Positions 3,423-49,477 of a stretch of DNA of 49,477 nucleotides are shown here, piece after piece. The notes beneath the pieces are model-generated. The model ran no database searches. It had not been told where the DNA came from and saw only the letters and a program-made list of their open reading frames with translations. Every line of letters starts with the position of its first letter. The first letter of the stretch is position 1. A program made the translations under genes and the position numbers. This DNA comes from a virus (lineage: Duplodnaviria; Heunggongvirae; Uroviricota; Caudoviricetes), in the IMG/VR virus record IMGVR_UViG_2541047944_000004, positions 1 to 49,477 of that record; one strand, given 5' to 3'.

Positions 3423-3722
3423 TTATACCTCTGAATCAATATCAACCTGGTGACGCGCAATGGTTTCAACCATGTACCGGATGTGCTCCGCCACGCGTTC
3501 CTGAAATTCAACATCGTCATCAAATGCGCGACTGATTGCCTGTTTGCTGGCACCGTGGCGTTGCAAATGGTCGATGCAGAGCGATTCAAACAGGTGCTGG
3601 GGCAGACCTTTTTCCAGGTCGTCCGCCAGTTCCGTTTCTTTTTCTTCGCGAACGATCTTCTGGTAGTGGCGTGACCATGCCAGCTCTTCAATGCGATCAA
3701 AAATCGGGCATGTGCTCATCAT
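3423..3722 (-). CDS. gam: Gam, RecBCD inhibitor
   Basis: Translation matches C-terminal 98 aa of lambda Gam ([29 protein letters not shown]...HQVDIDSEV); start may be at internal Met because upstream gene overlaps. Confidence 0.85.
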
Positions 3723-5712
3723 CTGTTACCCCAAAATTTTCAAGTTTGTTTGCGATCATCATTGCAATACCCGGAATTAATGGCGCTGAGGCTATACCTG
3801 CAGGATTCGCACATAAACCGTAAACCGCCGCAATCACCACTTGTCTTTTCCAGTCGAGTTTTTCTAATGATGAAGCTGCTGCTTCGCCAGTTTCATCACT
3901 GCAATCGCGATGCGGATCGCTGCCAGCATTCTCCTTGTGTGGATGTTCAGCGCCTTCCATTTTCTCCGGCTCATTTTCCCGAACTTCAACCTGATTCTCG
4001 TCATCGAATGTTTCCTGATATATTGCGTCGCCCATCACCGCACCACAGTCAGGGCAGTTATCCCCGCTAGACTGACCGCAGGCATTGCAAACTTTTTCTA
4101 CTTCCTGTTGCGCCACTGGTTCAGGCTGTTTCGTTTCTGGCTCGTTTTGTAACGCATTTGGGCTGTTTTGTTCCGCTTTCTGGTCGTTCTGTTCCGATTC
4201 TTGTTGGTTCTGGTTCACTGAATCGCGGGTTTCAATCCCCTTCACCCATTTCGGATCATTCGGGTCGCTAATCCCCTCAACAAATTCACCACGTGATGCA
4301 GCAAGCAACTTATCGGCATCGACAGGATTTTTTGATGGAATGTTTTTCCGGGCTTCATGGAGTTCTGCCCGCAGTTCTTGATATTTCGCATCAACAGAAT
4401 TTACCTGTGACTGAGCATCCAGCGGCTGCGTGTCCTGATGATGTTCAGTTGCGTCCGGTTCCATTGTTTCAGCCTCTCCCTGTTCATCTGCCGTTGTTCC
4501 AGATGGTTGCGGTTTTTCTTCATCATCCTGTTTTCCTTCTTCTGTTACACGCTGCGGCATCGGGGCAGAGGAACGACCGCAGGCAATATCCACGATTTCC
4601 GGATCAGGGTTGGCATGATCAGTTTCAGTCAGTACTTTGTTCAGATATTCAGTGACGTGCGCGGGGGTGACCTCGATCCCAATTGGTGCTTCTTTCACGG
4701 ACGCAACCACGATGGCGCGGGAATAATCCAGCCCGCCAGGCATGGTGATGAATTTGTCGCGGAAAACAGAAAAGGGCGGTTTATTTTCAGCGATAATTTC
4801 CTCAATGCGTTTAGCGTGTGCCGGATGAAGGTTATAGATGTCCACGTCCATTGAACGGGCAAGTACGCCAGTGGCTACATCGCGTGCCAGTGACGTCAGA
4901 TCGTGGACGAAACCTTCGCCGCGATCGGTGAGGTTCCCGCCGCCAGCATTAGCACCGGAAGCCGTGCGAGTGATGCGTGAAACACGATTTCCTTTCATCC
5001 ACTCTTTTGTCAGCAGACCGCGATCGGTGTAGTCTGCGTCCAGGTATGCTTCGAAAAAAGCAGTCATCAGCCCCAGACTTGAATTGCCTGGATTAGGGAA
5101 AACTTTGTCAGTATCACGAACCAGTCTGTGAAGATCGCGAATCTCCAGCAGGTCGAGCAGGCTGGTTTTGTGGGAAACAGCCAGGGCAGTAACAGCTGGT
5201 AGTTCTTCAGCCCGTGCAATATGTAATGTCTGGAGTTCGTCGCGTGAAACGTGCGTTACCGGTTTTTCGCTGCCGTGTTGAGCAAGCCAGCGAATGGGCA
5301 GCTCTTGGCCAGAAATCGGGAGTAGCATATTCTCCTCAATCTCAGTCATGTCTTCGCCATTAACATTGGTATTGTCAGTGCTGGCTGGTTTGTCCTGCGC
5401 AGAGGATGAGGGCGCGATAAATACCATTGTGATGCCATCTTCCCCGCCTTTTTCGTAACGGTTGCAGAATTCCGTATCAAATACGCCTTCTGGTGGAAGG
5501 TCATCAACAACGGGCAAATTGACGCGAACAGGTTTTTTAAAGTCATCTTCATCGTAGCCAGCATCGTCAATCGCAACAGCACCACGGGAGATGGCAATGG
5601 ATAATTTTTTCGCTTCAGCCCAGTAGAAACCGCCTTTAATACCGAGACGTTTTCTTACTTTGTCATTTTTTGCTTCGTAATACAGTGGGTAAACTTGTTT
5701 ATCGGTGCTCAT
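3697..5712 (-). CDS. Large acidic hypothetical protein (671 aa) with CxxC...CxxC zinc-ribbon and C-terminal hydrophobic segment
   Basis: Long uninterrupted ORF in early-left operon upstream of gam; low-complexity Q/E/D/N-rich centre; CNACG...CPDCG motif; hydrophobic C-terminus. Confidence 0.6.
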
Positions 5713-7886: not shown

Positions 7887-8306
7887 TTACTCCGGTGGGG
7901 GATTATCTTTAAGCCTGCCTCTCAAATATTTTTCTACATACTCATCGATTTCTTTTAGCCGGACTTCAAATAGCTCAATCATTCGTTGTTGTTCTGAGCC
8001 CGGTAGCTGGTTAAACAACTCAAGAAGTTTTCGTTGGGATTCATTTAACCACAATTCAGAAGATTCCTGTTCTCCAAAGAGGAGCTCAGGGGGAGATATG
8101 CCAAGTGCCTTTCCCAATACGACAGCGTCATGCACTCCAACATTTCTGCTGCCCGCCTCATAGTTACCTATACGCGATTGCGTCCATCCGCAGATTTCAG
8201 CAAGTTTTCCTTGAGATAAACCAAGCTTCTGCCTGCGCTCTTTAAGACGCATTGCAATTTTGTCATTGAGCCTACTAGCGGCAATTTTTTCGTTTTCTTT
8301 TTCCAT
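7887..8306 (-). CDS. Prophage repressor, HTH XRE family (CI/DicA/RacR-like), no S24 peptidase domain
   Basis: N-terminal HTH (LGLSQGKLAEICGWTQSRIGNYEAG), 139 aa; divergent from Cro-like gene; C-terminus lacks Ser-Lys peptidase motifs. Confidence 0.85.
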   Translation of the reverse strand: MEKENEKIAASRLNDKIAMRLKERRQKLGLSQGKLAEICGWTQSRIGNYEAGSRNVGVHDAVVLGKALGISPPELLFGEQESSELWLNESQRKLLELFNQLPGSEQQRMIELFEVRLKEIDEYVEKYLRGRLKDNPPPE

Positions 8307-39556: not shown

Positions 39557-39904
39557 ATGAGAACATGGGGCCGCGTCACCGACGCGAACGGCAACAAAAA
39601 ATGGGTTGCTGTAGAATCTGACGCCAACGGTGATTTCTCCTACGGCTGGCTGACGACGCTCATTCAGACGTTAAAGCTGGGGTTGGGGGAGTCGCCGTTT
39701 TACGCGAATTACGGTATTCCAGCGCAGCAGTGCATCGTGCAGCAAATTTACCCGGACTACTATGTGAACATGGTTCAGCAACAGTTTGCCGGGTATTTTG
39801 CATCGCTGGCAATTTCAAAGGTAGATGGGGCAGAGAACCCCACCTATAACATCGATGTTGTGTTTTTTAACGGAACCAGTTACCGGACGCAGGTTCCGGT
39901 TTGA
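39557..39904 (+). CDS. Baseplate protein (115 aa)
   Basis: ORF in baseplate cluster. Confidence 0.5.
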   Translation: MRTWGRVTDANGNKKWVAVESDANGDFSYGWLTTLIQTLKLGLGESPFYANYGIPAQQCIVQQIYPDYYVNMVQQQFAGYFASLAISKVDGAENPTYNIDVVFFNGTSYRTQVPV

Positions 39905-40377
39905 GGCAAGTTTTCGGGCATCAGTTGGGCCAGTGGCGTGTTAAGAAGTTCATCGCGTGGCATGACAATCCATCCACTTTTGCGTAGTAAGTGAATTGCC
40001 CATTCTGTGGTTATAACTGAGCCTGATTTATGGTGCTCAATGTGGGTAACCGAGCCGTTTCTGACGCGCATGATGATGTCAACATTCAGAGGGGATTGTG
40101 TGCTGGTGGTATCCTCGCGCAGCTTTTTCTCGCACTCGATGAAGTATCGGCGGATCTGGTGGCCTTTTTCGTTGCGCTCAACCATCGCCAGCTCTTTGGC
40201 GGTGTCCAGGGTTAGGTGGTAGTCTTTAGCTGGTCTGCCTCTACCGATTTTTTCCCGATTTTGGGAAATAATCAAAAAGTCCTGATTTTCTACGAATTCA
40301 TACTCGCTGATTCGCTCGGTGATCCATGTAGCAAAGCGTTTACCTACTTCGAGAAAGGCGTGCATCATAAATATCAC
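39880..40377 (-). CDS. Antirepressor, AntA/AntB-like
   Basis: N-terminal region (ISEYEFVENQDFLIIS...DYHLTLDTAKELAMVERNEKGHQIRRYFIECEKKL) matches recollected AntA antirepressor domain; opposite strand inside tail module. Confidence 0.65.
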   Translation of the reverse strand: MIFMMHAFLEVGKRFATWITERISEYEFVENQDFLIISQNREKIGRGRPAKDYHLTLDTAKELAMVERNEKGHQIRRYFIECEKKLREDTTSTQSPLNVDIIMRVRNGSVTHIEHHKSGSVITTEWAIHLLRKSGWIVMPRDELLNTPLAQLMPENLPQTGTCVR

Positions 40378-40386
40378 TGCCTGATT

Positions 40387-40935
40387 TTACATGTTTTCTT
40401 TACAGGAATTGATTGCAGCCTTATATGCTTCCGGAAGGCCATCTAATGGGAAGAATATTTTTTGTGGTTTTTCTTTACTTTCAGTTGGCGGAGTGTACCA
40501 AAAAGAAAAACTACCTTTCCCTTTAGATTTTAACAAATCACTAATCTTTAATGAGCTAATAGGACTGAACAAGTAACCTTCATTGATAGATGGGGTTGTT
40601 ATAGAGTCCTGCTTTTGTTGTCCACTGATTTTATAGCTTACAGGAAGGAACGGTGGTAAATCCATTTGTTTATATCCAATAAAATGATTGACAGTTACAT
40701 CACCGGGCTCACATTGAGTTAACGGTGATATATCAATAAATAAAGTTGATTTATCCTGCGGCAATTTGGATTCAACACCAATACGATAAGCCATAGTGGT
40801 AGGCATGGTAAACTCAGCATAATACCATTTACCAAATTGTTGAATGTCATTCATTCTCTCTGTGGCATCAATTGCATGAGAAACACCAGAAAATAGCAGT
40901 GAGCTAATCAAAATCCCTAATGAGTTAAATTTCAT
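40387..40935 (-). CDS. Secreted protein with cleavable signal peptide (182 aa), unknown function
   Basis: N-terminal MKFNSLGILISSLLFSGVSHA signal peptide; AT-rich; 9 nt upstream of ant gene on same strand. Confidence 0.6.
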   Translation of the reverse strand: MKFNSLGILISSLLFSGVSHAIDATERMNDIQQFGKWYYAEFTMPTTMAYRIGVESKLPQDKSTLFIDISPLTQCEPGDVTVNHFIGYKQMDLPPFLPVSYKISGQQKQDSITTPSINEGYLFSPISSLKISDLLKSKGKGSFSFWYTPPTESKEKPQKIFFPLDGLPEAYKAAINSCKENM

Positions 40936-40956
40936 AAAATCCTCTTGAGATTAATT

Positions 40957-42183
40957 ATGTCAGAAATACCAATTACTATGACCAGTGCGGGTGCGCAGCC
41001 TACGCCACCCAATGACTTGCTCGCGAATCTTATCACCAGAGTTGCTGAAAAAGTACCTGGATATACAGCCAACCTTCCGGCGGGACTTATTACAGACCTT
41101 GCCAGCACGGCTGTCGGGGCGCTGGCATTAATAGACCAGGCGCGGGTGGATCTTATTAACTCCGTAAGCCCATACGGCGCGAATATTCCGTTACTGATGC
41201 AACTCGGAAACATTTATGGAGCACAGAAGGGATTAAGTACAAATACGGCGGTATACGTGGTGTTTGAGGCGTTGCCGGGGTTTGGTATCCCTAAAGGATT
41301 TGTTGTCGGTGACGGCAACTACCAGTATGCAGTTTCCCGCGATACGGTGGTGCCGGAAAGCGGGCAGACTGAGCCAGTCTACTGTGTGGCCATAACGTCA
41401 GGCTCATGGGCTGTACCGGAAGGAACCGTAACTCAGGTCATTACATCGGTACCCAAAGATCAGCCTGTAAAATGCACGAACCTTACCGCAGGAATGCCAG
41501 GTCAGGAGGCGCAAACGTGGGCATCTTACCGCGCCGAAGTCATGGAGTCTGGCATGTTTGGTGTGCAGGGAACACCGGATTGCTTTAAAGCGATGCTCAA
41601 ATCAGTAAGCGGTGTGCGCGAAAACCTGATTTCTTTCCGGCAGTCGTCGCTGGGGAAATGGGTTGCGGTTGTTGGTGGCGGTGATCCGTATGACGTGGCT
41701 TATGCGATTTACAAATCTGTACCGGATATTTCGAAACTGACCAACGATGTAAGCAATCCATCCGGTGCGGCAGTGGAAAAACGCACGGTTTCAATAACCG
41801 TTTCGCCGGACGTTTATCAGGTGCCGTTCGTTATCCCGTCATCACAAAACGTCATGGTGCTAATCACCTGGAACACGGTGTCTGATGATTATGTTGACCC
41901 GGCGGGTATTGCTATGGCTGTGCAGAAAAACGTTGCTGATTACATCAATTCTATTGAAGTCGGTCACCCGATAAATCTGCTGCGAATCCAGGATATTTTT
42001 ACCAGCTCCGTAAAATTGCTGGTTGATGCGACGTTGATCTCAACAATCAGTGTGAGCATTGGTATTAACGGTCATATTGTTCTTCCGGCAAAAGACACAA
42101 GCCTGGTTTATGGCGATACCTATTCCTATTTTTCGACGGTGGCATCACAGGTTCAGGTCAATAAGTATGCAATATCTGACTGA
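40957..42183 (+). CDS. Baseplate J-like protein
   Basis: About 400-aa protein followed by overlapping I-like gene and tail fiber. Confidence 0.65.
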   Translation: MSEIPITMTSAGAQPTPPNDLLANLITRVAEKVPGYTANLPAGLITDLASTAVGALALIDQARVDLINSVSPYGANIPLLMQLGNIYGAQKGLSTNTAVYVVFEALPGFGIPKGFVVGDGNYQYAVSRDTVVPESGQTEPVYCVAITSGSWAVPEGTVTQVITSVPKDQPVKCTNLTAGMPGQEAQTWASYRAEVMESGMFGVQGTPDCFKAMLKSVSGVRENLISFRQSSLGKWVAVVGGGDPYDVAYAIYKSVPDISKLTNDVSNPSGAAVEKRTVSITVSPDVYQVPFVIPSSQNVMVLITWNTVSDDYVDPAGIAMAVQKNVADYINSIEVGHPINLLRIQDIFTSSVKLLVDATLISTISVSIGINGHIVLPAKDTSLVYGDTYSYFSTVASQVQVNKYAISD

Positions 42184-42793
42184 GAAAATACTTCCTGCTT
42201 ATCCGTTTGTGCAGTACAGAGATGATCCGAATGTTGTTGCGTTCTTTGAAGCATACAATGAAATTGCTCAGGAATACCTCGATTCGCTCAACAATCTGGC
42301 ATTGCCATGCTGGACATCGGAATCAATAACCGGGCAGTTGCTGGACTGGATAGCACTTGGTATTTACGGTGTTGAAAGACCTTTACTACAGGTTTCAGAG
42401 GAGGCTATTGCGCGCGGTGCATACGATACCATTGAATACAATACGATCCCGTATGCCGCAATGCGGAATTACGTTCCGGGGCAGGCATCGTATGTACCTG
42501 ATGATTATTTCAAACGAATATTAACGTGGAATTTTTATAAGGCTGACGGTTCGCATTTCTGCATTGACTGGTTAAAGCGACGTGTGGCGCGGTTCATTCA
42601 TGGAAAAAACGGAATAGACCCGCCGTTGCAGCACACTTTTGATGTGAGTGTGACAGTATCGGACAGCGTTTTTTCTATTCAGATACCAGAGTATGGCGAT
42701 GGTATAGGCTATTTTCTGAAAGATGCCATTGACCAGAAATATGTAAAACTCCCTTTTATTTATTCCTATGCAACAACGGTGATTCAAAAATGA
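42167..42793 (+). CDS. Tail protein I-like baseplate component
   Basis: Overlaps J-like gene; ATGA overlap with tail fiber gene. Confidence 0.5.
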   Translation: MQYLTEKILPAYPFVQYRDDPNVVAFFEAYNEIAQEYLDSLNNLALPCWTSESITGQLLDWIALGIYGVERPLLQVSEEAIARGAYDTIEYNTIPYAAMRNYVPGQASYVPDDYFKRILTWNFYKADGSHFCIDWLKRRVARFIHGKNGIDPPLQHTFDVSVTVSDSVFSIQIPEYGDGIGYFLKDAIDQKYVKLPFIYSYATTVIQK

Positions 42794-44343
42794 TTCTTGG
42801 ATTCGGCAATAACGTTGTTTCAGCACTGGCTGGTGATATTACGACGATTCAGACTGATATTCCGGTGATGCCGGGCACGGGAGCTAAATTTGCAAAATTG
42901 CTTTCTGCCGATTTTGAAAATAAATCGAACGGGCAACGCGTCTATGCGAAAATTACGCTTACCGATAATAAAGAGTCTGCATTTGAGATTTGTCACCTGG
43001 TATCGGTAAGCGGTGATGTGCTGAAAGTCATTCGTGGGCAGGAAGGAACGACCGCGAAAGGTTGGTCCCTTAATGACGTTGTGGCTAACTTTGCCACGCG
43101 TGGATCTGAAAACTATTTCGTACAGATAGCGCAGCTTCAGAGCGGTCATTATATTGCGGGTGTTGCTGGCGGCACTGCAAATGCACTGACGCTGGAGCTT
43201 CCCGCGACGTTTTTTGTTAATGGGGGCTCAGATTGGACGCTACGAACCCCGATTATCGTTTTCCCCGTTCAGAACAATACCAACGCCGCAACGCTTCAAT
43301 TGACACTGGGCGGAAAGGTTCTTGGTACGTTCCCACTTTATAAGGGGAACAAGTCCGAGCTGGTAGCGAATGATATCATTAAGGGTATTCCTTTGATTTG
43401 CCTTCTTGATAGCGAGAAAAGCTATTTCAGCGTGATAAACCCCGGCAATATCTATTCAGATTTTGATCTGCGATATGTAAAAAAAGCTGGTGATTTGATG
43501 ACCGGGGAACTGAAAATCCGTGGTGTTAATGCACTGAGGATTTTCAACGACGCTTTTGGTCTGATTTTTCGTCGTTCGGAAGAGTGCCTGCACCTTATCC
43601 CTACCAGTGAAGGTCAGGGCGAGAATGGCGATATTGGTCCACTTCGACCGTTCACTATTAATCTGCGGACGGGTGAAATATCCATGTCGCATAAAGTGTC
43701 TGTTGGCGGCGGCTCTCAGGTCAATGGTGCGTTGGGTATCGGCGTTCAGAACGCGCTGGGCGGAAACTCAATTGCTTTCGGGGATAACGATACAGGTATA
43801 AAACAAAACGGCGACGGCATTCTGGATGTTTATGCGAATGGACAGCATGTATTTCGTTTCCAGAATGGTGTGGCGATAGCGTTAAAAAATATTCAGGCCG
43901 GAGATGCTAAAAAATTCACGTTATCCAGCGCCAACAACTCCACGAAAAACGCAACGTTTAATTTATGGGGCAATTCATCCCGACCTGTAGTTGCAGAGCT
44001 TGGTGATGATTCCGGCTGGCATTTTTACAGCCAGAGAAATACCGATGGCAGTATCACATTCGCTGTAAACGGACAGATGACCCCATCAAACTATGGAAAT
44101 TTCGATGCCCGTTATCAGCAGCGAAATGGTGGCGTGCAGGATGTGCGTTATGGTTCCGAAATGTATTACAACCCGGGAGGTAACCAGGTATCCTGGACAT
44201 TTCGCTCACCTTCAGGCCACGGGTTATCCGGTATTAATGTGCAGGAAACCGGAAGTAATTCGGCAGATAACATCGGCGGCGTGTATTACCGTCCGCTTCA
44301 GAAACTGATTAATGGCACCTGGTATAACGTGGCGAGTGTTTAA
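42790..44343 (+). CDS. Tail fiber protein
   Basis: Conserved motif DLRYVKKAGDLMTGEL typical of caudoviral tail fibers; Gly/Asn-rich C-terminus. Confidence 0.8.
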   Translation: MILGFGNNVVSALAGDITTIQTDIPVMPGTGAKFAKLLSADFENKSNGQRVYAKITLTDNKESAFEICHLVSVSGDVLKVIRGQEGTTAKGWSLNDVVANFATRGSENYFVQIAQLQSGHYIAGVAGGTANALTLELPATFFVNGGSDWTLRTPIIVFPVQNNTNAATLQLTLGGKVLGTFPLYKGNKSELVANDIIKGIPLICLLDSEKSYFSVINPGNIYSDFDLRYVKKAGDLMTGELKIRGVNALRIFNDAFGLIFRRSEECLHLIPTSEGQGENGDIGPLRPFTINLRTGEISMSHKVSVGGGSQVNGALGIGVQNALGGNSIAFGDNDTGIKQNGDGILDVYANGQHVFRFQNGVAIALKNIQAGDAKKFTLSSANNSTKNATFNLWGNSSRPVVAELGDDSGWHFYSQRNTDGSITFAVNGQMTPSNYGNFDARYQQRNGGVQDVRYGSEMYYNPGGNQVSWTFRSPSGHGLSGINVQETGSNSADNIGGVYYRPLQKLINGTWYNVASV

Positions 44344-44345
44344 CA

Positions 44346-44891
44346 ATGTTGCATTTAAAAAATATTACTGCGGGTAACCCGAAAACCGCGGAACAATATC
44401 AGCTGACAAAACAATATGGTATCACCTGGCTTTTTTCGGAAGACGGCAAAAACTGGTATGAAGAACAGAAGAACTTTGCCAGTGACACCATAAAAATGGT
44501 TTACACCGGAGACGGGCGCGTGGTGTGGGTCGGTAAGGATGTGACAGGCATTGAACCCCGTAACGCCAGTGTTATTGAAGTTCCTGATATTACTGCTAAC
44601 CGCCGTATTACCGTGCCTGGTTACTGGTTTTACCGCGACGATAAATTTGTCTTCGACTACAAACTTAAAGCGGAAGATGAGCGCGATGCCCTGTTAAAAC
44701 AGGTCAGCATCATGACCAGCGAATGGGAAAAAGACCTGCTGCTGGGATTAATCAGTGACGAATACAGGGAGAAGCTGAAAGCGTACCGCATTTACGCGAA
44801 ATCGCTGCAGGCGATGGATTTCAACACCATCACTGATAAAACCTCATATAACGCTATTGAATGGCCCGCCTCTCCGGAAACCTCTTACTGA
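44346..44891 (+). CDS. Tail fiber assembly protein
   Basis: 181 aa immediately after tail fiber gene. Confidence 0.65.
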   Translation: MLHLKNITAGNPKTAEQYQLTKQYGITWLFSEDGKNWYEEQKNFASDTIKMVYTGDGRVVWVGKDVTGIEPRNASVIEVPDITANRRITVPGYWFYRDDKFVFDYKLKAEDERDALLKQVSIMTSEWEKDLLLGLISDEYREKLKAYRIYAKSLQAMDFNTITDKTSYNAIEWPASPETSY

Positions 44892-44914
44892 TTTAATTTA
44901 TTGCGAGAAAAACT

Positions 44915-46879
44915 ATGTCTGTAGTGATATCAGGTGCGCTGATTGATGGCGCAGGCATCCCCATGTCCGGATGCCACATAATTCTGAAATCCCGGGTAAA
45001 CACCTCAGAGGTGGTGATGCGCACAGTTGCCGACGTGGTGACAGGAAACTGTGGCGAGTACTGTTTTAAGGCGCAGACCGGAAAATATTGCGTATATCTG
45101 AAACAGGACTGGCGCGACGAGTACTGTGTTGGCGACATTTCGGTTTACGACGACTCTAGGCCCGGCACACTGAACGACTTTCTGACCGCCCTCGATGAAG
45201 GCGATTTAAAACCGGATGTAGTGAAACGCTTTGAGGAAATGGTGGCGCAGGCGCAGCAGAGCGCGGAAGCGGCAGCGGAAAGCGAGCGACAGGCCGGGCA
45301 ACATGTCGCTGATGCGCAACAAATTAAGAGCGACTGCCAGACGCTGGCGGATAACGTACAGCAGAATGCGGAATCCGTTGCCGAAGATAAAAAGCAGGTG
45401 GCACAACTGGCATCATCTGCCACACAGGATGCGGCCCGCGCAGAGCAGGCTGTCAAGGATGCTGACGCGATAGTCCAGAAAGCGGTCGATAAACTTGCTG
45501 ATGCCGCAACGCTGACTGGCGAGGCAAAAGCCAGCGCCGAAGCGGCAGCAAAAAGCGAACAGAACGCGAAACAGCACAGGGACGAGGCGCAACGGATAGT
45601 CGATGACCTGAAAGGAACCAGCGCCAGCACGACGCAAAAAGGCCTGGTGCAACTCTGTAGTGACACGGACAACGACAGCGAGGAACTGGCAGCCACACCA
45701 AAGGCTGTCAAAACCGTCATGGACGAGACGAAAACAAAAGCGCCACTGGACAGCCCGGCATTCACCGGCACGCCCACCACACCAACCCCACCGGACGATG
45801 CTGCCGGTCTGGAAACAGCGAACGCGGCATTTGTCCGCAAACTGCTCGCTGCACTGGTTGACTCGTCACCGGAAGCCCTGGACACACTGAACGAGCTGGC
45901 AGCGGCGCTGGGTAATGACCCGAACTTTGCGACGACAATCACAAACGCGCTGGCAGGCAAACAGCCGCTTAATGACGTGTTAACGGCTGTCAGCCAGATA
46001 ACACCGGAAGAAAACACACTGCTTTATTTCAGTGCAGAGGGCCGGATTTTACTGGCGCAGCTGTCAGAAAAAGCCCGCGCATTACTGGCGCTGGACACGT
46101 CTGAGGCCATGCGCACGGAGCTTGAACTGAAAGCGGCTGCGACAATGGAACCCCAGAGCGATATCCGCGACCGCACACCGGGCAGGCTGGCACTGTCCGG
46201 CATGTACGGATTCGGTCAGGCATTCACCAGTGCTGACGCTCAGGCATTTAACGGACAGGCCGATTTTGCTGAATGGCTGAAAGAGGCCACCCCGGGGCGT
46301 TATGCGGTCAGTATTGCGGACTCTTCCACACTACTGGTGGGTACCACGAAATTTAACGGCATCATTGATGTGATGTGGTCCCCCTTTGATAACGACGAAT
46401 CAGACGCAATACGCAAATTCAAAACGCTGCTGTGTTTTAACCAGTATTACGAAGGTGAGCACAGTATTCATCGCCTGACTTATCGCTGGAGTGGAAACAA
46501 CTGGAATGCAACAGTAAGCCCTGTCATTTACGACGGCGATTCGCTGGCCTTCCTGCTGTCCCGGACGGCGGGCAACGGCTCGTCCTCATATTACAAATAT
46601 CCGGCAGTTGGCTCTCTTATTCTCGCGGTCTATCAGGGAACAGCGGCAGGAGATAAGGAAATAAAAATTGGCCTTGGGGATGTAGTGGCGGGGTCGCGAC
46701 TTGGTCCTGTGGCTATCGACTGTGCAATTAATAATTCCGGGACATATGTTTCCACACCTTCAGTAAAGGCGGGTGGTGCTGGGGCATTCAGTTTTCCCGG
46801 TCGTTATCAGGCCCTGTCAGGTTATCGTGGAACGTATGGCGACAGAGGCTTTATCTGTTTGTTCGTGCGCATTGAGTAA
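44915..46879 (+). CDS. Side tail fiber protein (Stf-like) with prophage tail-fibre N-terminal domain
   Basis: N-terminus MSVVISGALIDGAGIPMSGC...; repeats TQKGLVQL/AATPKAVK/PLDSPAFTG/ANAAFVRK typical of lambda-like Stf. Confidence 0.8.
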   Translation: MSVVISGALIDGAGIPMSGCHIILKSRVNTSEVVMRTVADVVTGNCGEYCFKAQTGKYCVYLKQDWRDEYCVGDISVYDDSRPGTLNDFLTALDEGDLKPDVVKRFEEMVAQAQQSAEAAAESERQAGQHVADAQQIKSDCQTLADNVQQNAESVAEDKKQVAQLASSATQDAARAEQAVKDADAIVQKAVDKLADAATLTGEAKASAEAAAKSEQNAKQHRDEAQRIVDDLKGTSASTTQKGLVQLCSDTDNDSEELAATPKAVKTVMDETKTKAPLDSPAFTGTPTTPTPPDDAAGLETANAAFVRKLLAALVDSSPEALDTLNELAAALGNDPNFATTITNALAGKQPLNDVLTAVSQITPEENTLLYFSAEGRILLAQLSEKARALLALDTSEAMRTELELKAAATMEPQSDIRDRTPGRLALSGMYGFGQAFTSADAQAFNGQADFAEWLKEATPGRYAVSIADSSTLLVGTTKFNGIIDVMWSPFDNDESDAIRKFKTLLCFNQYYEGEHSIHRLTYRWSGNNWNATVSPVIYDGDSLAFLLSRTAGNGSSSYYKYPAVGSLILAVYQGTAAGDKEIKIGLGDVVAGSRLGPVAIDCAINNSGTYVSTPSVKAGGAGAFSFPGRYQALSGYRGTYGDRGFICLFVRIE

Positions 46880-46893
46880 CAAGGAGATAGAAC

Positions 46894-47466
46894 ATGAAAA
46901 TCAGAGCGGTAAAGGGCATCAGAAACGCGCATTATCTCGAAAATGGTGCGGTTGACTGCGAGGTGTTATTTGAAGGTGAAACGGAATTCGTCCCGTATAC
47001 CGCCATGCAGGACGATACCGCACCGACAGGCCAGCGCATCTGGGAAGAGTTACAGAGCGGCAAATGGGGCGAAATTGCCCCGTTCACCGTCACGCCGGAA
47101 CTTATCGCAGTGGCAAAGGATGCCAGAAAGCGGGAAATCGAGGCATGGCGTACAGAACAGGAAGCACAGCCGTTCACGTTTGAATGGAACGGTCGCACCT
47201 GGAACGCTGGCCCCGATTCAATAGCCAGGCTGTCTCCGGTGGTAATGGCTGCAAAATCTGACACAGCGCGAAAAACCATGGTATGGGGCGATGCGGAAAA
47301 CCAGCAGGTGAAACTGTCAATGCCGGAACTGGAAGAACTGGCAGCAGCAATGGCGCAGGCTGTTGTTGAACGCAATGACGAGATTTATCGCCGTCAGCGA
47401 GAGAAGAAAGAAGCGTTAGACACTCTGGAGGATTTAGATGCGATACGAGCATTTAATGTTGAGTAA
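46894..47466 (+). CDS. Putative tail fiber assembly/chaperone protein (190 aa)
   Basis: AAGGAG RBS; immediately downstream of Stf-like gene. Confidence 0.5.
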   Translation: MKIRAVKGIRNAHYLENGAVDCEVLFEGETEFVPYTAMQDDTAPTGQRIWEELQSGKWGEIAPFTVTPELIAVAKDARKREIEAWRTEQEAQPFTFEWNGRTWNAGPDSIARLSPVVMAAKSDTARKTMVWGDAENQQVKLSMPELEELAAAMAQAVVERNDEIYRRQREKKEALDTLEDLDAIRAFNVE

Positions 47467-47642
47467 CGAATAGGTCGCAGTGAGTTGTTCTGGTATCTGA
47501 AGAATGAGGCTCCGGTTGCTGGCTGCAGTCGGAGGTTTATGATGTGTACTCTCACATTGTTGAAGAAATCAATTGCGCAATTGGAGAGCAGGAACGTAAG
47601 AAAACAAGAGAAAGTCTACAATCGCTTGTAGGGTGTCACTTC

Positions 47643-47672
47643 TTGATTTTTGCATAAATTTTATGATAAAAT
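47643..47672 (+). promoter_or_regulatory. Sigma70-like promoter (TTGATT, 18-nt spacer, TAAAAT) for terminal two-gene unit
   Basis: Seen directly about 30 nt upstream of the ATG at 47703. Confidence 0.45.
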
Positions 47673-47702
47673 CATGAAGTAAAAGTGATGGGAGAAACTT
47701 TC

Positions 47703-48374
47703 ATGAATATGCCTCATTGTGTTCTGCATACAGGAATTGATTCGGATTTTGTACTTAGTAAACTGGGCTTTACAGAAAATGATATTCGCGATGCGTTAAT
47801 GTCTGCTTTATACGAGCGACGCAAATCCAGTAAGCTCCACCCTAAAGTGGATGCTGGATTCCGCTTTTGGAGTGAGATGGTTGCCGCGCTTCGCCGTATT
47901 CTGATTGGTAAGGGTAACGGCTGGTCTTCTGAAGTAGTCAATCGCATGGAAATGGTCGTTAATTCAAGCAAAGGGGTTAATCTGATTATTACCTCAGGTG
48001 ACGGACATACCGGGCGTCCTGATGGATTGCCTAAAACCAAAAATGCAAAGGGAGAGGCAACTCGCTCGATTGTTCACAACAATCCGGGTACATTCGATAT
48101 GTTCCAAGCAGATACCTTACATTCAGGCAAAGCTGAGATCACGCCGATAGATAGCACCCGAACTTATATCGTTCTGTATTATTATGATGCGGCAAATAAA
48201 GAAATTCGCTGTGAGGTGTCGTATCCGGTAGGGATGGTGAATCAGGACGGATTTGCCAGAGTAAGCGCGTGGAGTGAGCGAATTATTTTAGCTCCTCTGC
48301 AATTTGAAGGTGCGGATATTTTCCCTGAACAGGATTTTGATGATGACATATCAATTTCAGTTGAAAGCAAATGA
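47703..48374 (+). CDS. Hypothetical protein (223 aa), partner of HTH-ImmA/IrrE gene (candidate toxin/effector)
   Basis: GGGAGA RBS; no recognised motif; stop overlaps downstream start (ATGA). Confidence 0.6.
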   Translation: MNMPHCVLHTGIDSDFVLSKLGFTENDIRDALMSALYERRKSSKLHPKVDAGFRFWSEMVAALRRILIGKGNGWSSEVVNRMEMVVNSSKGVNLIITSGDGHTGRPDGLPKTKNAKGEATRSIVHNNPGTFDMFQADTLHSGKAEITPIDSTRTYIVLYYYDAANKEIRCEVSYPVGMVNQDGFARVSAWSERIILAPLQFEGADIFPEQDFDDDISISVESK

Positions 48375-49477
48375 GTAACACTGTTGATGATGTCAAACGT
48401 CTTTTTAATCCGTCTCGACTAAAGCTAGCGCGGATCAGACGCAAACTGACCTTGGCAGAACTGGCGAGGCGAACCGGGTTATCTAGTCGTATCGTAATTG
48501 AATACGAAAAAGATTATTGTCTTTATGCACCCACGGCAGAGACGGTACGCGCATACGCTAGTGCTTTAAATTATCCAGAGGCTTTTTTCTTTGGCGATGA
48601 TGTTGAAACAATTGATCCATTGACTGTTTCATTTCGTTCATTACGCACAACAAAAGCTGCTGACCAGCATGCGGCAATTGGTGCAGGTGCTTTAGGGGTT
48701 ATGCTTAGCGATTATTTTAATGCTCGCTTTACTCTTCCTTCGCCTCAATTGCCGAATCTCCGTGGAAGTGAGCCTGAGGTCGCTGCCCAAGCGATACGCG
48801 AGGCTTGGGGGATTGGTAAGAAGAGTATCACCAATGTTGTTCATCTACTTGAGAAATTTGGAGTTAAGGTGTTCTGGCTTTCAGAGGAAACAGCGAGTAT
48901 TGATGCTTTTTCGTTCTGGAAAGATGATGTCCCTTATATCTTTCTTAACACACGCAAGTCAGGTGAACGCAGCCGTTTTGATGCCGCACATGAATTGGCT
49001 CACCTAGTACTTCATCGTCAAGGGGAAGTCAAAGGGCAGGATGCTGAGCGTGAAGCGGATGCTTTTGCTTCTGCATTTCTAATGCCTCAGGAAAACGTGA
49101 TGGCCGTTAAGATGGTGGTCCCGACGTTTGATAAAATTGTGCAATTGAAATCACTCTGGAAAGTTTCGGCTATGGCCCTGATTGTCAGAATGCGCAATCT
49201 AAATATGCTGACGGAATGGCAGTATAATAGTTTGATGCGTGATGCGACGGCAAAGGGGTATCGAACCGGCGAGCCGGGGGGAATTGAGCGCGAAAGATCA
49301 CTCGTTATAGAAAAAATGATGACTGCTCTGGCTGGAGACGGCATTTATCTGGCTCAGTTGAGTGATGAGCTTAACGTACCTCTCGATGAATTGAGTAGTT
49401 TGCTTTATGGAGTTGCGGCAATTAGTGGCGGAAATAGCAAAAGAACACTATCAAGGGCTTCGCTCCGACTAGTATGA
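48371..49477 (+). CDS. HTH (XRE) - ImmA/IrrE family zinc metallopeptidase fusion protein
   Basis: N-terminal HTH (LTLAELARRTGLSSRIVIEYE) and HEXXH motif HELAHLVLH with downstream E (EREADAFASAFLMP); ends exactly at window end with TGA. Confidence 0.8.
   Translation: MSNTVDDVKRLFNPSRLKLARIRRKLTLAELARRTGLSSRIVIEYEKDYCLYAPTAETVRAYASALNYPEAFFFGDDVETIDPLTVSFRSLRTTKAADQHAAIGAGALGVMLSDYFNARFTLPSPQLPNLRGSEPEVAAQAIREAWGIGKKSITNVVHLLEKFGVKVFWLSEETASIDAFSFWKDDVPYIFLNTRKSGERSRFDAAHELAHLVLHRQGEVKGQDAEREADAFASAFLMPQENVMAVKMVVPTFDKIVQLKSLWKVSAMALIVRMRNLNMLTEWQYNSLMRDATAKGYRTGEPGGIERERSLVIEKMMTALAGDGIYLAQLSDELNVPLDELSSLLYGVAAISGGNSKRTLSRASLRLV

Follow-up and report, generated by a model that had tools for sequence, protein, structure and literature searches.

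We analyzed a 49,477-nucleotide (nt) stretch of DNA from a virus of the Caudoviricetes (IMG/VR record IMGVR_UViG_2541047944_000004, positions 1 to 49,477; hereafter, the window, meaning this whole stretch). Its right end carries two plus-strand genes, rmrT and rmrA, which together very probably form a RosmerTA, a toxin-antitoxin (TA)-type module for anti-phage defense. An initial annotation, made without database searches, had described a 223-amino-acid (aa) protein without a recognized motif whose gene overlaps, by an ATGA, that of a helix-turn-helix (HTH)-ImmA/IrrE fusion, and both open reading frames (ORFs) were found as described. ORF1 (rmrT, 47703-48374) encodes 223 aa from an ATG and is predicted to specify the soluble toxin of RosmerTA (PADLOC family PDLC03935). 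ORF2 (rmrA, 48371-49477) encodes 368 aa, the putative antitoxin and regulator. The two genes are joined by a 4-nt overlap (gcaaATGAgt), and the TGA stop codon of rmrA forms the last nucleotides of the window. Pfam searches placed an XRE-type HTH domain (HTH_3) at residues 17-72 of RmrA and an ImmA/IrrE Zn-peptidase domain (Peptidase_M78) at residues 161-274, followed by an uncharacterized C-terminal region. The metallopeptidase motif is intact, with HELAH at residues 207-211 (within HELAHLVLH) and, further on, an ExEAD...FLMP segment (AEREADAFASAFLMP). The reading frame of ORF1 extends upstream to a GTG at 47685, and the RefSeq version of the product (228 aa) starts from an ATG at 47688. Since a Shine-Dalgarno sequence (GGGAG, 47690-47694, plus strand) lies 8 nt 5' of the ATG at 47703, and since homologues from three other genera have their start codons at the same alignment position, the 223-aa start is better supported than the RefSeq start; a purine-rich block occupies the equivalent place in homologous loci. 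At 0.446, the G+C content (GC) of the module lies below that of the whole window (0.485), at the 10th percentile among 2-kb windows. As the initial annotation had noticed, the module is also richer in A+T than the genes just upstream (0.549 for the adjacent fiber gene and 0.524 for a DUF4376 gene).

Searches against PADLOC assigned both proteins to RosmerTA. ORF1 matched the RmrT profile PDLC03935 (E = 1.4e-59) over profile positions 10-206 of 207, and ORF2 matched the RmrA profile PDLC03949 (E = 1.3e-142) over positions 2-362 of 363. As a reference we used the experimentally verified RosmerTA of E. coli OLC-716 (RmrT, 239 aa; RmrA, 370 aa), with sequences taken from Table S2 of the preprint by Millman et al. 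(2022). The OLC-716 proteins have the same top PADLOC profiles as those of the window (PDLC03935, E = 1.1e-52; PDLC03949, E = 1.3e-149), so that both window proteins fall within the HMM-defined subtypes of the verified system. Direct comparison gave 29% identity between the toxins (E = 4e-19, residues 7-200) and 44% between the RmrA proteins, end to end (E = 2e-106), with HELAH and AEREADAFASAFLMP of the window protein aligned with HELGH...AEQDADRFASAFLMP of OLC-716 RmrA. The two systems are alike in toxin-first gene order, protein sizes, top profiles and the HExxH motif of RmrA; they differ in the diverged toxin, in the upstream regulatory sequence and in the location of the window pair, which lies at the right end of a ttcA-integrated prophage. 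RmrA also matched phrog_2439 in PHROGs (E = 1.3e-86) and, at the level of domains, the PADLOC profiles capP (E = 1.3e-19), capH (E = 1e-5) and PD-Lambda-2_B (E = 0.0078), while a phmmer search of RmrA against the Protein Data Bank (PDB) gave no match at E ≤ 0.01. For the 223-aa protein there was no significant match in Pfam, NCBIfam or PHROGs, to a tail or structural family or any other (best E 0.12-0.27). These results suggest that the pair is very probably a RosmerTA module, accessory cargo of a prophage that is integrated at ttcA/uspF and carries the pair at its right end. Weighing against this identification, the toxin is only 29% identical to verified RmrT, and the label "RmrT" covers several unrelated toxins. 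The initial annotation had proposed a toxin/antitoxin-like or defense pair made up of an effector of unknown kind and its partner, a reading that the full-length profile matches and the homology to a verified system bear out in essence, although its membership in a named system had not been recognized. RosmerTA is already named and catalogued, and the present pair is a further copy that standard defense-finder tools can flag. For annotation, this gives a name to two genes labeled "hypothetical protein" and "helix-turn-helix domain-containing protein" in RefSeq, namely a prophage-borne RosmerTA at the ttcA site.

Upstream of rmrT lies a sigma-70-type promoter on the plus strand (TTGATT-18-TAAAAT, 47643-47672; -35 element at 47643-47648, -10 element at 47667-47672, with a TG extended -10), which the initial annotation had picked out. 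Both elements are covered by a 43-bp palindrome (47638-47680, without strand) that has the half-sites ACTTCWTGATTTT. Its arms, ACTTCTTGATTTTTGCATAAA and TTTATGATAAAATCATGAAGT, are 21 nt each and separated by 1 nt, and 18 of the 21 arm positions are complementary, a value not reached once when the region was simulated 2000 times with a first-order Markov model. When the locus was compared among E. coli, Serratia fonticola, S. marcescens and Rouxiella (the toxins of the compared Serratia and Rouxiella loci are 54-58% identical to window RmrT), 34 of the 43 palindrome positions were invariant, against 8 of 78 in the upstream flank. The conservation of the palindrome over four genera is far above chance, and both promoter hexamers lie inside blocks that are conserved across genera. 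Within the 49-kb window, the promoter of the module is the one place where the exact half-site ACTTCWTGATTTT is found, and the immunity region lacks it. The simplest reading is that the palindrome is a candidate operator, on which the HTH of RmrA, as a dimer, would autorepress the operon in the manner of classical type II TA systems. Two points temper this picture: as a bare consensus match the promoter is at chance level (4 sites found and 3.8 expected from shuffled sequences), and the operator assignment comes from the palindrome and its conservation. By eye, the palindrome was not visible in the published sequence upstream of the OLC-716 system.

Among 5426 complete E. coli genomes, the same 2-kb segment occurs in eight, at ≥99.6% identity and always on the chromosome; the rmrTA allele of the window is therefore rare in E. 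coli. These genomes also allowed us to look past the window end, where the initial annotation had left open whether further partner genes follow. In E. coli OkiPb01675, rmrA is followed, according to RefSeq, by host uspF on the opposite strand and then by ompN and nifJ. RNA folding revealed a perfect 15-bp hairpin ~54-88 nt past the rmrA stop codon, followed by U residues (dG -24.3 kcal/mol, z -4.6); a simple terminator scan made no call at this site, where the T-run is partly inside the stem. A search of the 562 nt downstream of rmrA against the E. coli genomes split this sequence into three zones: the first ~150 nt are confined to the eight rmrTA genomes, the next ~180 nt are shared with some other genomes at the same locus, and the sequence from ~328 nt past the stop codon is the universal ttcA-uspF host junction. 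In the eight genomes, the order is thus the gene pair, the strong hairpin, attR and host ttcA/uspF. Since the downstream sequence shows this three-zone pattern and uspF is the next gene, no third gene follows rmrA, and the pair is the last cargo of a prophage integrated at ttcA. With its own promoter, Shine-Dalgarno sequence, ATGA overlap and a strong hairpin just past the window end, the pair is a self-contained two-gene operon. On its upstream side, a weak terminator-like hairpin (47510-47534, plus strand; 10 stem pairs, 6 of them GC, and a weak T tail) follows the DUF4376 gene and may insulate the module against read-through from the late operon; no second site of this kind was called in the region, and shuffled sequences would be expected to yield as many. 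Where other prophages have a related DUF4376 gene, the slot behind it carries different cargo, namely a Rha-family regulator and an ash-family gene. The window pair would add to the cases in which a prophage arms its host against other phages by cargo carried at its end.

To judge how far the two genes travel together, we examined eight loci outside the window, and in 8/8 the RmrT-family gene was directly followed by an HTH-M78 gene (343-377 aa; the 343-aa calls lack the HTH). In Serratia fonticola (locus L002, 27-7715), rmrTA lies beside an integrase gene, Metallophos/GAAD and GASH genes, two DO-GTPase genes and the gene of an HNH protein, and in three S. marcescens lambdoid prophages the pair is located between the replication (dnaB) and antiterminator regions. 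In Rouxiella badensis (locus L007, 4145-16681), it is flanked on one side by a Gabija-like OLD-TOPRIM ATPase and UvrD helicase and on the other by a type I restriction-modification (R-M) system with an extra FRG-domain gene. In Alloalcanivorax, Parendozoicomonas and a contig of the Chloroflexota, with toxins 27-34% identical to that of the window, the pair adjoins integrases or recombinases. The loci span prophages, defense islands and integrase islands, from Enterobacterales to Chloroflexota, and adjacency of the two genes is kept across distant phyla and varied mobile elements. This pattern is that of a mobile, self-contained defense or TA module, not that of a phage structural gene or a prophage-specific regulator. 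Within S. marcescens, two strains (L004 and L006; 8678-8750) have a 343-aa gene call after rmrT, which starts 72 nt past the rmrT stop codon and has no HTH_3 match; in a third (L005), the call is for 368 aa and shows the usual 4-nt overlap. The shorter calls may reflect a different start codon or a frameshift by which the HTH is lost.

An exhaustive profile search with RmrT recovered 1469 clusters (50% identity) at E ≤ 1e-3, of which 667 also passed E ≤ 1e-10, and nearly all among 150 listed RmrT-family clusters were 190-250 aa in length. When 138 diverse members of the family were scanned, PDLC03935 was matched by every one (138/138), and Pfam gave scattered chance matches only. Four residues are invariant (G99, G117, E171 and R193), E171 and R193 being the invariant polar positions. 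A further set (L18, G52, R64, W74, T103, G104, P110, N127, L158, R169, S173, P175 and W190) is kept in ≥90% of members, and D100 (D/N), K113 and K116 (both K/R), D162 and E167 are also strongly conserved. The protein has no hydrophobic or transmembrane segment (maximum Kyte-Doolittle 19-residue mean, 0.76). An AlphaFold2 model built from a deep alignment was confident (pLDDT 89.6, pTM 0.84) and comprises alpha 50-69, beta 74-79, beta 82-87, beta 92-99, alpha 118-126, beta 153-162 and a long hairpin at 167-195, followed by an acidic, low-confidence C-terminal tail (residues 200-223). According to this model, RmrT is soluble and consists of a single domain built around an alpha-beta-beta-beta-alpha-beta core. 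A Thr is found at residue 43 (codon 47829-47831) in 106 of the 138 members and a Ser in 20, including the window protein. In the prophage toxin of E. coli E101 (WP_001179380.1), the substitution T46S reportedly abolishes clpP dependence (Rousset et al.; 10.1101/2020.05.25.114553), and T46 may fall in the same column as residue 43.

The modeled core weakly resembles a nuclease fold, and RmrT may be a non-canonical nuclease with a restriction-endonuclease-like fold and a relocated active site, which we treat as a lead rather than a classification and rate at somewhat below an even chance. No sequence-level relationship was found between RmrT and the PD-(D/E)xK proteins in question (NaeI, ThaI, BglI, SfiI, SwaI, EcoRV, Hjc and RecU), and the conserved charges of RmrT are located elsewhere than in that fold, with D100 after beta-3, K113/K116 in a loop and D162/E167/E171 on later strands, together with R193. 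Several results speak against a nuclease. Foldseek found no match of the RmrT model to the PDB at E ≤ 1e-3, and a profile search of PDB sequences returned just BfiI (2c1l), at a non-significant E of 0.15. The canonical catalytic Asp (beta-2) and (D/E)xK (beta-3) are not conserved in the RmrT family, which has N/G, L/Y and E/P/S at residues 81-83 and A, I, A/V, V and S/A at residues 93-97, and D100 itself is Asn in 25 of the 138 members. We also considered a membrane-depolarizing toxin like that of phage Kita (see below) and rejected it, since RmrT has no hydrophobic segment and the toxin families appear to be unrelated. On a more speculative reading, which we regard as possible but doubtful, the RmrT family would be an unrecognized enzyme class with a restriction-endonuclease-like core, whose relocated active site is centered on E171/R193, aided by D100, K113, K116, D162 and E167; the toxin would be kept inactive through proteolysis that depends on RmrA, with ClpXP taking part, instead of through plain stoichiometric binding, and RmrA would repress its own synthesis via the palindrome. 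If true, the pair would be a small and convenient system in which to study how Rosmer senses phage and what it destroys. Beyond the published descriptions that we found, our analysis adds the conserved palindrome, the family-wide invariant residues and a confident toxin model with a weak nuclease-fold resemblance; these offer possible starting points for experiments.

Published work on related systems indicates how such a pair might function. The RosmerTA of OLC-716 protects against phages from its native promoter, and a ΔrmrA construct of it could not be transformed (Millman et al., 2022; 10.1101/2022.05.11.491447). In Vibrio mimicus, Vmi480 kills the cell unless it is countered by the HTH-Zn-peptidase Vmi470, the two forming a classical toxin/antidote pair (PMC4671572), and in E. 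coli E101 a prophage TA module of like architecture makes clpP essential, an effect suppressed by a point mutation in the toxin (10.1101/2020.05.25.114553). Essentiality of rmrA and, in Rosmer carriers only, of clpX has been found in Pectobacteriaceae (10.64898/2025.12.09.693261). In S. pneumoniae RipAB, RipB needs ClpX to counter RipA, which targets and binds DnaN (10.1101/2025.09.02.673660), and RmrT of the Gordonia phage Kita depolarizes membranes, the Kita system protecting against phage (PMC10440598). Rosmer is widespread. In the literature on Rosmer, we found no published effector chemistry or trigger for the toxin family of the window, and since the other RmrT toxins appear to be unrelated to it, their activities cannot be transferred to the window protein. 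From the anatomy of the locus, we propose that an RmrA dimer would bind the 43-bp palindrome through its XRE HTH, covering the -35 and -10 elements and autorepressing the operon, and that the gene overlap would lead to RmrA being made together with RmrT. By analogy with the published homologous or same-architecture systems, RmrT would be toxic alone and would be neutralized by RmrA, probably with a need for host ClpXP as well. Phage infection would then upset this balance, and the freed RmrT would arrest or kill the cell before the phage cycle is completed. The part assigned to ClpXP is weakened by the fact that this requirement is known from other alleles, with toxins of uncertain relationship to window RmrT.

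The comparison with these and other systems helps to delimit the window pair. Vmi480/Vmi470 and E101_02645/02644 of E. coli E101 likewise consist of a toxin of unknown fold encoded first and a ~360-aa HTH-Zn-peptidase antidote whose gene cannot be deleted on its own, and the E101 module is also borne by a prophage; Vmi480, at 198 aa, is shorter than window RmrT, and the likeness of the Vmi480 and E101 toxins to it is drawn from their published descriptions. In RipAB (Spr1630/Spr1629) and in the RmrTA of Kita, both assigned to the Rosmer family by their authors, the antitoxin likewise joins an ImmA-like peptidase to an XRE HTH. Their toxins, a DnaN binder and a depolarizer with a predicted membrane-localized C-terminal region, appear unrelated to window RmrT, however, and window RmrA scored 127 bits against the NCBIfam spr1629 model, far under its cut-off of 335 bits. 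An Xre HTH combined with an ImmA/IrrE peptidase is found as well in PD-lambda-2 (Vassallo et al., 2022) and in CapH/CapP of CBASS. PD-lambda-2, however, has three genes, including those of a HigB-like toxin and a P4-type third component, whereas the window pair has two genes and no HigB match; CapH and CapP are separate proteins encoded beside CBASS genes, whereas RmrA has HTH and peptidase fused and no CBASS is present.

An alternative that would account for much of the architecture is that the pair is mainly an addiction module, stabilizing the prophage by post-segregational killing and without a meaningful anti-phage role. A type II TA organization, an antitoxin gene that is essential in carriers, a position at the edge of an integrated element and the frequent adjacency to integrases elsewhere would all be expected of such a module. 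Nevertheless, we consider it unlikely, for the closest tested relative, that of OLC-716, is protective against phages, and the Rouxiella pair, between Gabija-like genes and type I R-M, is in a typical defense island; the addiction and defense roles are, moreover, not mutually exclusive. Less probable still is that ORF2 encodes an ImmA/IrrE-type anti-repressor protease that cleaves a CI-like repressor for prophage induction, with ORF1 as an accessory gene and not a toxin. The M78 domain is indeed common to ImmA and IrrE, both of which cleave HTH repressors (PMC10440598), and the prophage has a CI-like HTH repressor (7887-8306, minus strand). However, this immunity region is ~40 kb away from the pair and lacks the palindrome half-site, the two-gene unit is also found in non-phage islands and at a different position in an unrelated lambdoid prophage, and homologous antitoxin genes are undeletable unless the toxin gene is removed. 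Because the unit moves between unrelated elements and its operator would be private to its own promoter, an induction switch is very unlikely; the ImmR/ImmA switch differs in the same respects, since in the window HTH and peptidase are in one protein, the half-site is at the pair's own promoter only and the pair occurs in unrelated elements. That ORF1 is a structural or tail-associated protein (e.g., a fiber accessory) and a neighbor of the regulator by chance, as its place directly after two cassettes of tail-fiber and accessory genes might suggest, can for practical purposes be dismissed: it matches no PHROGs, Pfam or NCBIfam family significantly, has its own promoter in a conserved palindrome and a composition unlike that of the fiber genes, and its homologues, all of which matched the RmrT profile among the members scanned, occur in loci without tail genes nearby and also outside prophages.

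The remainder of the window is consistent with the placement of the pair in a prophage. At the left end lie genes for a 411-aa tyrosine integrase (1-1236; Arm-DNA-bind_2 and Phage_integrase) and a 671-aa RecE-like exonuclease VIII (3697-5712), and these left-end genes, together with the CI-like repressor gene and the ttcA/uspF junction, mark a complete prophage. We take the ttcA/uspF junction to be the Rac attachment site, and both the integrase at the window start and the RecE-like exonuclease VIII agree with this assumption. The gene directly upstream of the module (46894-47466) encodes a 190-aa, tail-fiber-assembly-like DUF4376 protein and follows a tail-fiber gene. The initial annotation had placed the pair after the last tail-fiber assembly gene; its position behind the tail genes holds, whereas the gene whose equivalent is annotated as a tail fiber assembly protein lies earlier, at 44346-44891. 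The region from 42790 to 47466 consists of two cassettes in tandem, each with a fiber gene and a smaller accessory gene (517 aa and 181 aa, then 654 aa and 190 aa, the latter being the DUF4376 protein). The second fiber gene is high in GC (0.55-0.59), with a strong AT skew of up to 0.51, around 45250-46000. In complete E. coli genomes, the DUF4376 gene of the window reaches at most ~94% identity, against 99.9% for the adjacent rmrTA in the eight genomes, a contrast that speaks for mosaic exchange at the prophage's right end. Further upstream, an AT-rich block on the minus strand (39880-41213; GC about 0.35-0.36) interrupts the plus-strand baseplate genes with three ORFs, one of 165 aa with an AntA/AntB antirepressor domain, followed by two of 182 aa and 93 aa without a family match. 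In the related prophage of OkiPb01675, a slot among the baseplate genes (L001, 6343-7503) holds a gene annotated as a type I restriction endonuclease. The block at 39880-41213 looks like a second variable cargo slot, which may coincide with that of OkiPb01675.

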